A program made the translations under genes and the position numbers. The notes beneath the pieces were generated by a model. That model saw only the letters and a list, made by a program, of their open reading frames with translations. It ran no database searches and was not told the DNA's origin. DNA of 64,000 nucleotides from an uncultured Planctomycetales bacterium (GTDB lineage Bacteria; Omnitrophota; Gorgyraeia; Zapsychrales; Fredricksoniimonadaceae): assembly GCA_964572155.1 (NCBI GenBank), contig CAZNDZ010000001.1, positions 648,840-712,839 of the forward strand. Reading direction: 5' to 3'. This document shows, one piece after another, positions 9,430 through 15,834 of this stretch (position 1 is its first letter; each line of letters begins with the position of its first letter).

Positions 9430-12400
9430 ATGATGAAATATATTGTTTTAGCGCTATTTGTATTAACATCATTTTCAGCTCAAGCGGCAACAACTTCAAA
9501 ATCTAACCCAAGTACATATCCTAAAGCGGTTGTGTCTAAGTCTTTGGTTAAGACACCTGAACCTATATCAAGTCCTACTACAAGCAATCCAACAAAAACG
9601 ACTAGTTCTGCTAAAACAGCTGCAACCTTGAGTTTGGCTGCAGCATCGGTCAGTTCTAGCGGGGGATCTTCAGCTAGCAGCATTACCACACAGGCAACAA
9701 GTGTGCATGTAGAGCAAACATCAGGTAGTGCTAATTTACCTATTCATATTGATACCCTCCCAGGAAGGGCGGGGATAGAGCCAAATATTAATCTTGTCTA
9801 TAACTCTGGCATGAGGCAGTTAGGGCTTGCAGGGGTGGGTTGGTCACTTGATTTGGGTTCAATTTCATTGTCCGTCAAAAAAGGTGTTCCTTTGTATGAT
9901 GGATCAGATACGTATGAACTATCTGGTATGAAATTGATTTATGATCCAACGGCAGGTTATTATCGGCCTGAGGTAGAAGGATCATTTTCTAAAATCGAAA
10001 AGATATCAAACGCTTGGGTCGTAACAGACAAAAAGGGGACCAAGTATTATTACGGAAGTGACGATACGTCTCGCATGGTTGACCCTGCCAATGCTTCACG
10101 TATTTTCCGTTGGTATTTATGCAAGGTGATTGATATTTTTGGCAATGCCATGAATGTGTATTATCACAAGGACGGGGCTCAGGTATATCCCGATCATATT
10201 TATTATACCGCTCTTGAAGGAGCTAATGCTGCTTACATAGGAAGTACTGCCCCAAGCATCGTCAATTTCGAGTATGTTGCAGCTCGTCAGAAGAGTACTT
10301 CTTATATCTCAGGATTTGAAGTTAATAATGCGTATATCTTAAGTGCGATAAAGACGTATACATATCCTTCGACCCTCAATAATAGCTATCGTTTTACATA
10401 TACGGCAAGCGCATCAACAGCTAAAGACTTACTTACATCCATTAAGATAGATGGGAGTGTTGAAAACGCGGGTTTGATCCCTGATATCAAATTTTCTTAT
10501 AGCGATACCACATCAACCAAGGGTTTTGTGCAAGATGTATTATTTAGTCCAGGCAGTGCGCCGTATTTGAGCTATGCCAGCGGCGGAAATTGGGTCGATG
10601 AAGGCGTTCGTTTTGGGGATCTCAATGGTGATGGCTATCCTGATTTTCTCATGGCGTATTATGATCTTTGTTCAGGGCTTACAACGTCTATGACGGGCTT
10701 AAATAATAAAGATCAGAGTTTTAGTGGTACTAACAAATGGTCTGTTGCTTCAACGGCTATTTTTAATTTAAGTTGCCGTGGGGGTAATCGAGATAATGGT
10801 CAGAGATTTATCGATGTCGACGGGGATGGCTTGCCTGATATTGTGCGTTCGTATTTTGAAGGTGTTGGTTGGCAGGGTGCTGCACTCAACGATGGTACCA
10901 CGGGTTTTAATGCAACCAGTAATTGGGTGATGCCAAATGGGGCATATTTTGCTTCTTGGTTGAATCGAGATTATACCCAGCCTGGGTCTGTGCAGTTGGC
11001 AGATGTGAATGGTGATGGTTATCTTGATGTGGTTGTTTCTGATGTCACGGCCAATAATCATAATGTGTATTTGAATCGCAAGGGTGCGGCAAATCCGACA
11101 ACAGGCTGGGAGACAACGCCAAGTACAAAGTGGATCACCCCTGCTGACGTTGATCTTGCCAATGGTTCCTCAACAGTTGTTGATATCAATGGCGATGGGT
11201 TGGCAGATATTGCTGTTGCAAAGACGGGCTATCGCAAGGTCTATATCAATACAGGTCGAGGTTGGAGTCAAACAAGTGCTGTTTTCGTTACTGACGGAAA
11301 TTGGGACCGCGTTACGTTAAACGATGGTACCGCCCAGATCCTCGACGTAAATGGGGATGGGTTGCCGGATATTGAGATCGTAACAGGCATTGCGGATACG
11401 TCTAATGTATTGATCAATACGGGTAATGGGTGGGTCATTGATAATTCATGGTTAATGACGGGTTTGCAGTTTTCACATATGGACACTCAATTTATTGATA
11501 TGAATGCCGATGGCATGATCGATTATTTGAATGCACCGCTAGGTTCTCAGCCACGCCTTTTTACAAATACTGCCAAGGTGCCAGATTTGTTAGTAAAAGT
11601 AGATAATGGCGTCGGGACAACCATGACAATTGCGTATGACAGTTCGGCGCATATGAGCAATCAATATTTGCCGTTTACGTTCCCCGTTGTCAAATCTCTT
11701 ACTTTAAACACCATCTCAGGTGATAGGACATCTTCTTACGTTACGCGTTACAACTACGAAGGTGGTTTATGGGATGTGACGGATCGTGAGTTTCGTGGCT
11801 TTAAGAAAGTTACAACCACTGATCCCGACGGGAACTATTCTATTGCGTATATGTTGCAGGATCATTTCCGCAAAGGCACCGCGTATTTAACGGAGAGCTA
11901 TGATAACACAGGAAAATTGCTTGGTAAGTCGGAAAATTTTGTAGCATTATCTCCTGTTGTTGGCACATCTGTACAGTTTCCATATTTAGTTCGATCTGAT
12001 AATTATCTTTATGGTGCCGACGGAAGTTTAAAACAACGCAGTGCGCAGGTGATGGATTATGATTTAACCAATGGCAATGTGACGAAAAAAGTGCAATACG
12101 GGGCCATTGATATAACAACACCATCTCTATCAATCATTGCTGATCCCAAGGTTGTCACAAGCATCGATAACAATGTGTTAACGACAACCATTGATTACGT
12201 TAATAATGCTGCACAGCCATTTATGAGCCTGCCTAAGTTGACGACGATTAGCGACAAACTGGGCACCACAATCAAAAAGACATGGTTCTATTATGATAAC
12301 AGTACGGACAATAATGCACTATTTACCAATGGGTTATTGACCAAAAAAGAAGATTGGAATGGGGATGCTAATCCAAGATTAACGACAACATATGCTTATG

Positions 12401-15400: not shown

Positions 15401-15834
15401 CAGCAGGAATGGGTGGGAGCTTCATACGAGGATTTGAGAATGGCGCTACAATGTCAGCTATTGGGTATACATCAAATTCGTTTGTGCATGATTATGCGCC
15501 TGCATTAATAAATGGAATATTAGCTGGAGCTACGTATATTCCAGGCCCTGTAGGAGCAGGGGCAAGAGTTGTAAGAACGGTTTTAACGGCGTTGAGTGTA
15601 GGATCTGAAGTGTTGATGTCAGCCTCTAAAACACCAAATAATTTGCCTGGAAATGCTGTTGAAAATCCAAATAGACCCGGAAGTTTTGGAGTATATGGTC
15701 CTGATGGGAAATTTACAGAAAGATGGAGATTTGATGAGGGAAAGAGCGGTATGCCAGGATGGAGAGGTAAAGACCATGTTCATGTGGATGGAGGAAAAGA
15801 TCATTTGCCGCCAGATACGCCGTATCCAGATTAA
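9430..15834 (+). CDS. Rhs/YD-repeat polymorphic toxin with Tc-toxin (TcB/TcC-like) N-terminal architecture and a C-terminal tip of unrecognised family
   Basis: GGAGAG RBS then ATG 9430. Signal peptide MMKYIVLALFVLTSFSAQA. S/T-rich linker. SpvB-like region (...NLVYNSGMRQLGLAGVGWSLDLGSI...). Six or more FG-GAP/VCBS-like D-x-N-G-D-G repeats. Numerous YD repeats (YDALGNLT, YDALGRKT). RHS core end RYYDPKLGRFITPD...NPVNLIDPTGH at 14908-14922, followed by a 304-aa Gly-rich C-terminal domain. Confidence 0.85.
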   Translation: MMKYIVLALFVLTSFSAQAATTSKSNPSTYPKAVVSKSLVKTPEPISSPTTSNPTKTTSSAKTAATLSLAAASVSSSGGSSASSITTQATSVHVEQTSGSANLPIHIDTLPGRAGIEPNINLVYNSGMRQLGLAGVGWSLDLGSISLSVKKGVPLYDGSDTYELSGMKLIYDPTAGYYRPEVEGSFSKIEKISNAWVVTDKKGTKYYYGSDDTSRMVDPANASRIFRWYLCKVIDIFGNAMNVYYHKDGAQVYPDHIYYTALEGANAAYIGSTAPSIVNFEYVAARQKSTSYISGFEVNNAYILSAIKTYTYPSTLNNSYRFTYTASASTAKDLLTSIKIDGSVENAGLIPDIKFSYSDTTSTKGFVQDVLFSPGSAPYLSYASGGNWVDEGVRFGDLNGDGYPDFLMAYYDLCSGLTTSMTGLNNKDQSFSGTNKWSVASTAIFNLSCRGGNRDNGQRFIDVDGDGLPDIVRSYFEGVGWQGAALNDGTTGFNATSNWVMPNGAYFASWLNRDYTQPGSVQLADVNGDGYLDVVVSDVTANNHNVYLNRKGAANPTTGWETTPSTKWITPADVDLANGSSTVVDINGDGLADIAVAKTGYRKVYINTGRGWSQTSAVFVTDGNWDRVTLNDGTAQILDVNGDGLPDIEIVTGIADTSNVLINTGNGWVIDNSWLMTGLQFSHMDTQFIDMNADGMIDYLNAPLGSQPRLFTNTAKVPDLLVKVDNGVGTTMTIAYDSSAHMSNQYLPFTFPVVKSLTLNTISGDRTSSYVTRYNYEGGLWDVTDREFRGFKKVTTTDPDGNYSIAYMLQDHFRKGTAYLTESYDNTGKLLGKSENFVALSPVVGTSVQFPYLVRSDNYLYGADGSLKQRSAQVMDYDLTNGNVTKKVQYGAIDITTPSLSIIADPKVVTSIDNNVLTTTIDYVNNAAQPFMSLPKLTTISDKLGTTIKKTWFYYDNSTDNNALFTNGLLTKKEDWNGDANPRLTTTYAYDVIGNLTSTTDPSNRTTSIMYDTTYKTFPVQTTNALSQTVKTYYYGINASELATDPKYNAQMYGPFGAVMAVVDANGQKMFKHYDSLGRLLKTISPLDTFDLPTSETIYTYGTNFLKVISKSRVNAGAATTIDSSTFVDGLGRVIQSKGTTATAGQYVVGEQKTYNSRGLVLSVFPSRFTSNDLNTMDPTPADTNPKVTNFYDALGRQIKALNSDGTYSNVEYDGLKTTSYDPNGHKNVSYSDSFGRMITREEYFGADGRDAKNPASAYTLYATTRYQYDALGNLTKVTDAKGNITTISYDALGRKTSMNDPDMHGWVYAYDSNGNLLSQKDALNKQLKFNYDALNRLKSKTVTLSMVSGGVTTIYDSLLASYTYENVSVANTTGRLSKVAYSSENATFNYDTLGRETSSTKNIAGVNYTVSRQYDDLNRLTKLIYPDAANVGYVYNTAGQAVGVNILNVDGSINKTIVSNVIYNAQGQMTSVVFGNGVTTQYTYDPVNFRLTRVLTQNAAAVKHQDLNYTYDSVGNIITITDAVNTGTQSFTYDALNRMLTSTGASYGTKTYAYDQIGNITQKDGLTYTYGTYGAGPHAVGSTSDGYIYRYNANGNMISKQTPTGGLYSYVYNYENRLTSIGFAPVGKVAKTIAAYYYDGDGGRTRKIVYRYSDTSYNNAETYGILVTQLGAPTFGVGVTQTSTSTIYVGNLYEIEGARRTNNIYLGSTRVAAVTGTEVDFYHNDHLGSTNVITDATGQARSLTEYEPFGKISRFEKYGTKINNTWAFFNSKLFDEESGLYYYGARYYDPKLGRFITPDTIVQAPSNPQTLNRYTYCNNNPVNLIDPTGHKWKWGNFFKAVGIAIAGAILTVVSAGTLAPVVGAYWAGVVTGAVAGATIGGTVAAATGGNIGQGLLTGAISGAVFGGIGSLHLSGLTQTLAHTAGGAVSGVINGAVTGGNIGTNALIGGISAGTSQWASSNIQIFKLSGNYFKDVITQASLGGIVGGGISAGMGGSFIRGFENGATMSAIGYTSNSFVHDYAPALINGILAGATYIPGPVGAGARVVRTVLTALSVGSEVLMSASKTPNNLPGNAVENPNRPGSFGVYGPDGKFTERWRFDEGKSGMPGWRGKDHVHVDGGKDHLPPDTPYPD

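Follow-up and report, generated by a model that had tools for sequence, protein, structure and literature searches.

Polymorphic toxins of the TcdB/TcaC class are defined by a signal peptide, an SpvB domain, an integrin-like beta-propeller and RHS repeats (Table 1 of Zhang, de Souza, Anantharaman, Iyer & Aravind 2012, Biol Direct 7:18; PMC3482391), and natural fusions of the B and C components were noted by Song et al. 2021 (PMC7861908). The stretch of DNA analysed here (the window, 64,000 nt of contig CAZNDZ010000001.1 from an uncultured Planctomycetales bacterium placed in the Omnitrophota) carries one large gene of this type on its forward strand, directly followed by a small gene for a candidate immunity protein. 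Judged by its sequence, the product is a TcdB/TcaC-class polymorphic toxin, and its layout is one already known. The fresh details are the Omnitrophota host, a lineage-wide glycine-zipper module, a 64-aa toxin family with a probable deoxyribonuclease (DNase)/PIM7-like pair, and recurrent proximity to type II secretion system (T2SS) genes. We consider it likely that this is a Sec-exported toxin of the class with a DNase-type tip and an adjoining immunity gene.

All defining elements of the TcdB/TcaC class were found, namely a signal-like N-terminus, SpvB followed by an FG-GAP propeller, RHS/YD repeats with a core, an exchanged tip and a downstream immunity gene, and relatives carry the orphan cassettes described for the class. 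The window toxin differs from the described members in that Omnitrophota are missing from the 2012 taxon list, its tip is not among the named Tox/Ntox Pfam families, and a long glycine-zipper module lies between core and tip. The cocoons built from the B and C components of Tc toxins, TcdB2-TccC3 (4O9X, 6H6E) and YenB-YenC2 (4IGL), share with it the SpvB domain, a six-loop propeller (which in TcB gates the cocoon), the TcdB-mid region, the YD shell, an R/D/D autoprotease core and a payload of ~300 aa, predicted here to be encapsulated as it is there. Unlike these, the window toxin combines B and C in one polypeptide and has a Sec-type signal, an immunity gene and no neighbouring TcA; its payload is hydrophobic with a small predicted nuclease, whereas theirs is an ADP-ribosyltransferase-type enzyme aimed at eukaryotes. 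A TcA partner was absent both from the window and from 79 related loci (obtained by scanning one genome per species), and the signal-like N-terminus departs from the signal-free release of classical Tc toxins by lysis through a type X secretion system (T10SS). Likewise, neither the PAAR/prePAAR N-terminus nor the adjacent VgrG/Eag gene typical of type VI secretion system (T6SS) Rhs effectors was found in the protein or in the window.

Four further systems resemble parts of the toxin. The mosquito proteins SGS1 and SGS4 (PMC9935623; 9ON3) have a Tc-like Rhs shell with propellers and an aspartyl-protease site, and SGS1 holds ~230 aa of predicted transmembrane (TM) helices inside the shell after that site, followed by a small C-terminal toxin-type domain, a design comparable to ours. 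Sequence homology to them was undetectable beyond the Rhs core, and neither a homologous TM payload nor a Tox-SGS tip was found. In Tse5 (PA2684, 8CP6), an Rhs cage likewise encloses a glycine-zipper-rich hydrophobic payload freed by autoproteolysis, but Tse5 has a PAAR-type N-terminus, is delivered by a T6SS, uses the payload itself as the toxin and has a membrane immunity protein; similarity to it is confined to the core. The sequence-only reading had also called the layout teneurin-like. This held for the YD shell (8fia, a weak match at E=2.6e-4) and not for the rest, as teneurins have lost the last catalytic Asp, lack autoproteolytic release and carry their toxin-like domain outside the shell, whereas the window protein keeps the full triad and the DPxGH site. 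Finally, PT7-PIM7 of Bacillus cereus (8OWU) pairs a small (~65–75 aa) beta-rich C-terminal toxin having a conserved Asp/His with a soluble beta-rich immunity protein, of ~115–137 aa across the two systems, and fold matches to both chains were obtained. The two pairs have no sequence-level similarity, the carrier is an LXG protein of the type VII secretion system (T7SS) there and an SpvB-Rhs protein here, and the DNase activity is a prediction here.

WapA of Bacillus subtilis is a further point of reference, as it combines a Sec signal, a YD shell, an Rhs core, a nuclease-type tip and adjacent immunity, and acts in contact-dependent competition without a T6SS. Unlike the window toxin, it belongs to a monoderm host with no outer membrane to cross, and it carries cell-wall-binding repeats in place of SpvB and propeller.

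The SpvB-Rhs polypeptide

A single open reading frame (ORF) spans 9394..15834 on the + strand. The ATG at 9430 was chosen as the start because GGAGAG lies 5–6 nt upstream, and residue numbers are counted from it. The features of the locus are as follows (a slash marks a predicted cut).

9332..9360, + strand: promoter-like site TTGACA-17-TGnTATGGT, ~70 nt 5' of the start codon (consensus match only)
9430..15834, + strand: complete toxin gene, encoding an Rhs polymorphic toxin of the TcdB/TcaC class (TcB-TcC fusion type), 2,134 aa and a stop codon
9430..9486, + strand: signal-peptide-like N-terminus, aa 1–19, MMKYIVLALFVLTSFSAQA/A (sequence features and hydropathy rule)
9487..9714, + strand: Ser/Thr/Pro/Lys-rich low-complexity linker, aa 20–95 (20 Ser and 14 Thr among 76 residues)
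9718..10194, + strand: SpvB/TcaC N-terminal domain, aa 97–255 (Pfam PF03534, E=2.6e-25)
10618..11523, + strand: FG-GAP beta-propeller region with six loops, aa 397–698 (FG-GAP and FG-GAP_3, E about 1e-16)
11476..11841, + strand: TcdB_toxin_midN, aa 683–804 (Pfam PF12256, E=1.6e-21)
11842..14664, + strand: YD/RHS-repeat shell, aa ~805–1745 (RHS_repeat PF05593, E=1.3e-42; YD_repeat_2x, E=3.8e-27)
14668..14922, + strand: Rhs-associated core with aspartyl autoprotease, aa 1747–1831 (NCBIfam Rhs_assc_core TIGR03696, E=1.1e-23)
14923..15627, + strand: basic KWKW..FFK junction, then a Gly/Ala-rich hydrophobic glycine-zipper module of ~235 aa, aa 1832–2066
15640..15831, + strand: C-terminal toxin domain, 64 aa, aa 2071–2134, probably a PT7-like metal-dependent DNase
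15865..16278, + strand: candidate cognate immunity gene, 137 aa, predicted all-beta, 30 nt past the toxin stop
16327..16357, + strand: hairpin GAAAAATAGGGGTCAACTCCCTATTTTCTAG closing the toxin-immunity unit (direct-repeat family D4; second copy at 18020-18050), likely a terminator or REP-like (repetitive extragenic palindrome-like) site
23290..32652, + strand: T2SS-like cluster with weak GspC, GspD, E, F, G, minor pseudopilins, K, L-like and M (Pfam)

The sequence-only reading had proposed a cleavable signal peptide, an SpvB-like domain, six calcium-type FG-GAP loops, a long YD-repeat shell and the RHS aspartyl-autoprotease hallmark, arranged as a TcB-TcC fusion rather than as a T6SS PAAR-Rhs protein, and had suggested a domain hidden Markov model (HMM) scan as a check. 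That scan recovered SpvB, TcdB_toxin_midN, RHS_repeat and the Rhs core, and the domain order together with the TcdB2-TccC3 and YenB matches supports the fusion layout; no PAAR was present. The six loops (D-x-[DN]-x-D-G-x-x-D) all stand within the propeller, at aa 397, 462, 525, 585, 639 and 690, spaced 51–65 aa apart. The autoprotease hallmark is intact, with ARYYDPKLGRF starting at aa 1786 and DPTGH at aa 1827–1831. This gives R1787, D1790 and D1827 as candidate catalytic residues and a predicted cut after H1831 (nt 14922; DPTGH/K). The roles of the equivalent Asp residues have been described for TccC3 (PMC7861908).

The protein was also compared with solved structures. The SpvB part aligned with YenB residues 27–97 (E=1.4e-5), the propeller with TcdB1 residues 500–795 (TcdB1 chain 6l7i_F matched over propeller and mid region at E=1.5e-8), and the YD/RHS shell with the shells of Rhs and TccC structures in the PDB. 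Among all PDB matches the best were a T6SS Rhs shell, 7q97 (9.8e-35) and TcdB2-TccC3 (4o9x/6h6e, about 1e-30).

The signal peptide was called by eye and by a crude hydropathy rule. The N-terminus MMKYIVLALFVLTSFSAQA/ATT has a single Lys, a 12-residue hydrophobic core and an A-x-A (AQA/A) ahead of the predicted cut, and its hydropathy peaks at 2.7 over 10 aa with the Lys before the peak. These type I-like features agree with the signal peptide proposed earlier, and by this rule signal-like N-termini were also seen in 92 of the 105 full-length relatives. Relatives also carry linkers of differing sequence in the equivalent position; glycosylation of the linker is speculation. In six relatives from few genomes (P0016, P0017, P0018, P0022, P0023, P0027), a motif S-E-[ML]-V-x-P-R-[ST] stands a few to about ten residues past the signal peptide. 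It could be a sorting or processing signal, and it is not clearly present in the window toxin.

Upstream of the gene, the promoter-like site at 9332-9360 is the top sigma-70-type match across 9100-18600, agreeing at 10/12 positions and including the extended -10 TG.

The toxin has a wide circle of relatives. A protein identical to it (P0013) lies on a 1,344,502-nt NCBI contig and on several read-archive contigs, and 583 proteins match the toxin body at E<=1e-10. The 79 related loci come mostly from Candidatus Omnitrophota metagenome-assembled genomes (MAGs), some labelled 'uncultured Planctomycetales', and the remainder from Nitrospirota and Desulfobacterota. Many genomes are multi-copy; at least five copies, including a tandem set of three, occur in the Omnitrophota MAG JBGAJA01. 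Two loci retain the chromosomal surroundings of the window: in L007 six upstream genes are conserved at 61–93% identity, and in L008 the downstream GspD and GspE are conserved at 78–79% identity. The Rhs bodies at these loci are only 57–63% identical to the window protein. The site is thus an old, conserved one at which the Rhs gene evolves faster than its neighbours. Judged by the relatives and by synteny with named MAGs, the lineage most probably belongs to the Omnitrophota.

The payload, its candidate immunity gene and cassette exchange

The payload after H1831 is 303 aa long. The variable tip proposed from the letters stands as a C-terminal payload after the cut site, with the refinement that it has two parts, of which the front one is common to most relatives. 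Neither the payload, the tip nor the immunity protein had a Pfam match even at E<=10, and the payload had only 12 relatives among 5.8 billion sequences.

The first part opens with the junction KWKWGNFFK and continues into the glycine-zipper module, which has 17 GxxxG motifs, only 3 charged residues in its first 135 aa, and several hydrophobic stretches (Kyte-Doolittle hydropathy over 19-aa windows, KD19, up to 2.07). About 23–26 of some 30 distinct related tips have an equivalent module after the cleavage site when scored for Gly/Ala content and GxxxG motifs. Most of these tips open with H[SK]W.KKF and then a glycine-zipper stretch, and their ends differ; the stretch is a pre-toxin module common to the lineage and not part of the variable end. 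Its sequence is strongly divergent among paralogs, while the tip/immunity pair co-varies. Homology of the module to the TM helices of SGS1/SGS4 was rejected, as a profile built from 19 modules gave 0 PDB matches at E<=10. One match to 9on3 (E=0.011) rests largely on the pre-cleavage core motif, and beyond the core only low-complexity matches were seen. Because the 9on3 match vanishes once the core motif is excluded, the SGS likeness is kept as a design analogy only.

The second part, the 64-aa tip, is an uncharacterised toxin domain family absent from Pfam. An exhaustive HMMER search placed the domain at the C-terminus of 105 representative clusters, whose upstream regions comprise RHS repeats, PT-HINT, PT-TG, WXG100-like (T7SS) and PAAR-like DUF4280 carriers; this range of carriers identifies the tip as a polymorphic-toxin domain. 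Conserved residues are N2079, P2080, R2082, E2097, R2100, D2102, H2116, H2118 and H2125. In domain numbering, the near-invariant positions are N9, P10, R12, G14, S15, G17, E27, R30, D32, H46, H48 and H55, where the last six correspond to E2097, R2100, D2102, H2116, H2118 and H2125 of the full protein.

The 137-aa protein encoded behind the toxin lacks both a signal peptide and TM segments and has just seven relatives, and its predicted model matches the PIM7 fold (8owu). The tip and immunity models, predicted separately, matched chains C and E of this one PT7-PIM7 complex, at ranks 3 and 2 among 48,164 chains. Sequence-profile comparison of the tip and of the immunity protein against the PDB gave no link, Foldseek on the tip returned nothing below E=3, and the Asp-to-His spacing is 14 residues in the tip versus 10 in PT7. 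The model-based match of the tip to PT7 is by itself not persuasive. The DNase activity of PT7 itself is non-specific and sensitive to EDTA, with Asp and His as catalytic residues (bioRxiv 10.1101/2021.10.19.465003). A PT7-like DNase is the best reading of the tip because both partners match one complex, and from the predicted folds we lean slightly towards it.

The pairing of tip and immunity protein is kept elsewhere, at L001/L011 and at P0244. In L001/L011, another Omnitrophota MAG, a full SpvB-Rhs gene with a different tip is followed by three small genes, a tyrosine integrase and then an orphan cassette. The orphan tip P0001 (293 aa) is 75% identical to the window payload, and the 134-aa protein behind it is 73% identical to the window 137-aa protein, while the Rhs body of the window protein shares only 46% identity with that of P0016. 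At the DNA level, window and orphan cassette agree at 78% over 1,195 nt, from ~170 nt past the cleavage site to the immunity stop. P0001 sits downstream of another full Rhs gene and retains a decayed core end, NPRLGRWITPD...DFDGHKWSWKKF. This orphan cassette is a classic Rhs tip displacement, and the toxin-tip/immunity pair behaves as an exchangeable cassette. A third immunity homolog, in the P0244 context, lies behind a 101-aa ORF that is likely a tip-only fragment.

The window itself holds no orphan tips detectable by tblastn with the core end and C-terminal domain (CTD), which returned the toxin gene only. The downstream ORFs were rejected as toxin remnants; they encode a lipoprotein, a secreted 320-aa protein and an HtpX fragment. 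The integrase between the full Rhs gene and the orphan tip array (461 aa; L001 8327-9712 = L011 17797-19182) was found in one genome only (L001) and was rejected as a general feature. Another contig of the same MAG (L015 2820-22217) carries three tandem SpvB-Rhs genes, each with a different tip. The ortholog at the equivalent site in L008 (15327-18028) also differs in its tip, behind which come a multi-TM protein of 139 aa, an Rhs shell fragment and T2SS genes. The 139-aa protein is a candidate membrane-type immunity protein. The main L008 ORF overlaps the next one in another frame, a sign of either a frameshift or an error in assembly.

Delivery, export and competing readings

By homology to TcB-TcC and Rhs structures, the protein would cross the inner membrane by Sec and fold into a closed cocoon, where the core would cut after H1831 and the payload would stay inside. 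The fold matches, the soluble immunity protein and the neighbourhood suggest that the last 64 aa act as a PT7-like, Mg-dependent DNase in the target cytoplasm, and the fold matches and neighbourhood that the cytosolic 137-aa PIM7-like protein blocks this DNase in sibling cells. We hypothesize that the glycine-zipper module enters the target inner membrane and carries the DNase across, doing the job of TcA, and that the outer membrane of the producer is crossed via the T2SS-like system or in some other way, for instance by vesicles or lysis. Other bacteria are the most likely targets, be they competitors, kin, or prey/hosts of the nanobacterium.

Partner genes were sought by a Pfam/NCBIfam scan of essentially every ORF of >=100 aa within the 64 kb window. 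Among the ORFs scanned there was no PAAR, VgrG, TcA (VRP1/TcA_TcB_BD), TpsB/CdiB or lysis cassette, no match to holin, endolysin or spanin, and no prePAAR, DUF1795/Eag or T6SS core gene. The scan bears out the earlier statement that TcA, PAAR, VgrG and CdiB genes are missing within 64 kb, and an N-terminal PAAR or adjacent vgrG, which would have pointed to a T6SS, was found neither in the protein nor in the window. Across the 79 related loci no non-Rhs ORF exceeded 1,501 aa, so that no TcA-sized gene lies beside the relatives, and the lack of TcA is typical of the family rather than specific to the window. Large non-Rhs ORFs in L063, L067, L072, L074 and L081 were considered as TcA and rejected by sequence; at <=1,501 aa and without an Rhs-query match, they are repeat-rich beta-helix, adhesin-like or sensor-kinase proteins.

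Genes of the T2SS recur near the family. Four related loci have GspD/E/F/G homologs <=10 kb from the Rhs gene: downstream and in the same orientation in L008 (where the gap from Rhs to the GspC-like gene is only ~2.7 kb), upstream in L027, and as divergent clusters in L065 and L066, both Desulfobacterota MAGs. With the window counted, this amounts to three T2SS-Rhs arrangements in two phyla, against a rough chance expectation of under one locus. The recurrence is suggestive of an export link, as far as gene order can indicate one, and giant or large secreted proteins beside T2SS-like loci have been described for the Omnitrophota, which are proposed to be host-dependent (bioRxiv 10.1101/2023.11.21.568195). 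Export of this toxin via the neighbouring T2SS is nevertheless a tentative and, in our judgement, doubtful proposal.

Several points weigh against the interpretation as a Sec-exported toxin with a DNase tip. A folded BC-type cocoon of ~230 kDa is probably wider than the secretin channel, which speaks against the T2SS route. The signal peptide is a rule-based judgement from the N-terminal residues, the immunity model is of moderate confidence only (pLDDT, predicted local distance difference test, of 72.6 from 7 sequences), and the TcA search covers the window and the 79 loci, with a distant tcA elsewhere in the genome outside its scope. A constant requirement of the DNase tip for a hydrophobic pre-module was rejected, as a hydrophobic segment was found in only 6 of the 16 other Rhs carriers of the tip; the module is thus not strictly needed by the DNase, and the hydrophobic payload could itself be the toxin.

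The last point can be extended into an explanation in which the glycine-zipper module acts as a membrane-depolarising pore, like the C-terminal fragment of Tse5, and the 64-aa domain provides a second or accessory activity. The 17 GxxxG motifs in an almost uncharged ~135 aa and the conservation of the module among relatives whose tips differ would fit a pore, and Rhs cages carrying hydrophobic pore-forming payloads are known (the Tse5 structure 8cp6 is among the PDB matches, and its paper is cited in PMC12057145). The multi-TM 139-aa protein of the L008 ortholog would also suit immunity to a membrane toxin. However, immunity to pore-formers is usually provided by a membrane protein, whereas the only conserved partner of the tip is a soluble, TM-free PIM7-like protein, and no membrane-protein gene lies between the toxin and the terminator hairpin. 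The module also diverges greatly among paralogs, in contrast to the co-varying tip and immunity protein. We regard a pore as unlikely to be the principal activity.

The reading as a DNase toxin can be taken further, to a self-sufficient, TcA-independent Tc cocoon that represents the Omnitrophota SpvB-Rhs family as a whole, with its own glycine-zipper translocator, T2SS-like export and use by host-dependent nanobacteria on neighbours or prey. The propeller gate would open on the target cell, the module would insert, and the small DNase would be pulled into the cytoplasm. This full combination is speculative and we think it improbable as it stands. If true, such bacteria would be the prototype of the SGS1-like design of a shell, buried TM helices and a small tip.

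The toxin might alternatively be the BC subunit of a classical three-part (ABC) Tc toxin with a eukaryotic target and a TcA encoded elsewhere in the genome, beyond the reach of the TcA search. The homology to TcdB/YenB and TccC is clear, and the 303-aa payload lies within the 201–400 aa range typical of TcC hypervariable regions (PMC7861908). Against this, the signal-like N-terminus is conserved in the family, while classical Tc toxins are released by lysis via a T10SS (PMC10847048), and no TcA-sized ORF stands beside any of the 79 relatives. The dedicated immunity gene and the orphan cassettes point to bacterial targets, and the tip family is carried by T7SS-, PAAR- and HINT-type antibacterial carriers. 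We consider a classical Tc toxin very unlikely.

Still less probable is a teneurin-like or SGS-like protein of the cell surface, or an adhesin, that is not toxic and attaches a small epibiotic cell to its host. The FG-GAP propeller and long Ser/Thr linker could serve as receptor binder and stalk, the YD shell is common to teneurin, and the Omnitrophota are proposed to depend on hosts and to have large secreted proteins close to T2SS-like loci (bioRxiv 10.1101/2023.11.21.568195). An intact autoprotease triad, an exchangeable tip/immunity cassette that has orphans, and membership of the tip in a polymorphic-toxin family argue against it. A T6SS-delivered Rhs effector with PAAR/VgrG partners outside the window is hardly credible. 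In its favour, the best single PDB match of the toxin is to a T6SS Rhs protein (7q97), but over shell and core only. Against it, the window has no PAAR, prePAAR, VgrG, DUF1795/Eag or T6SS core gene, and the N-terminus is a signal peptide plus SpvB rather than PAAR, a Sec signal that misfits cytoplasmic spike loading.

Neighbouring genes, Y1 transposases and wider meaning

Upstream of the toxin lie PstB/PhoU, a NuoF-like protein, an alginate-export-type porin and a small conserved cluster that begins with a ParA-like ATPase. The cluster region (5581-9259) is syntenic in L007 and L042. Its genes encode an ATPase of the ParA/MinD type with a fused CBM48/AMPK glycogen-binding module (6178-7413), a membrane protein of 108 aa for which a weak MamF/MmsF match is recorded (7413-7739), a protein rich in Lys whose end resembles EF-Tu domain 2 (7743-8228) and two small proteins that lack annotation. 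The cluster may be a positioning or compartment system.

Between the Rhs gene and the T2SS cluster, 15865-23200 forms a low-GC island (0.30–0.37 vs. 0.41–0.45 around it). Its genes encode a 163-aa lipoprotein (16484-16975), the secreted 320-aa protein (17058-18020), a trypsin-like lipoprotein (20935-22089) and a Fic protein (22194-23162), the last bracketed by GACACTATTTAT-type repeats; the HtpX fragment and two Y1 transposase units described below also lie in the island. A homolog of the 320-aa protein follows a Y1 transposase unit in L037. Related hairpins (AAATAGGG...CCCTATTT) stand after the immunity gene (16327-16357) and after the 320-aa gene (18020-18050), and others, at 16469-16485 and 16974-16990, flank the 163-aa lipoprotein gene. 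The island can thus be read as a series of cassettes delimited by hairpins, which could be terminators or REP-like sites. Past the T2SS-like cluster there are housekeeping genes. Two paralogous secreted proteins of 862 and 1,021 aa (47371-49959 and 59744-62809) share a conserved N-terminal region after the signal peptide and have no Pfam or NCBIfam match.

Two REP-associated tyrosine transposase (RAYT)-like Y1 (HUH) units lie downstream of the toxin, at 18493-19233 and 19725-20849. Their Y1 genes (18605-19192 and 19849-20550) are each bracketed by their own 30–36 nt inverted repeats. The first unit has 30-nt arms containing GTCCCCAAAAAGGGGAC, and in the second GAGAAACGACACTATTTATTC occurs five times. 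A 142-nt segment that holds the REP copies is duplicated at 99% identity immediately behind the second Y1 gene (20448-20589 and 20688-20829, 240 nt apart). A 129-aa ORF (18102-18491), whose similarity to HtpX-type M48 zinc proteases is limited to their N-terminal ~115 residues, ends 2 nt short of the first unit's left repeat arm and looks like a gene truncated by the Y1 insertion.

Y1 genes also occurred beside the relatives, with 21 genes in 19 of the 79 loci (L011, L016, L018, L019, L024, L028, L029, L034, L036, L037, L039, L044, L045, L049, L063, L075, L076, L082 and L085). All 21 lie <=2 kb from an Rhs ORF, compared with 32% of surveyed non-Rhs bases (P about 3e-11). For 14/21 the distance is <=700 bp (P about 1e-8), and 19/21 are co-oriented with the Rhs gene (P about 1e-4). 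Y1 genes were also seen directly 5' of orphan tips (L001 12369-12896, before 12955-13671; P0244 context). A role of the transposase as an Rhs operon partner was rejected, as each window Y1 gene has its own inverted repeats. The linkage may reflect an insertion preference or a role in moving toxin cassettes. A literature search found no paper on a Y1-Rhs link. With its possible bearing on cassette movement, the observation of this link may be equal in value to the toxin finding.

For the family, the locus provides an example of a complete, TcA-less BC-type Rhs toxin from a phylum that has been little studied and whose very small, probably host-dependent members have several genes of this kind in each genome. 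From the predicted folds, the 64-aa toxin family (105 clusters) gains a likely DNase assignment together with a matched immunity fold. The locus also sharpens the question of how a Sec-exported cocoon without a syringe partner exits a diderm cell and delivers a cytoplasmic nuclease, for which the glycine-zipper module and the recurring T2SS neighbourhood are concrete candidates.

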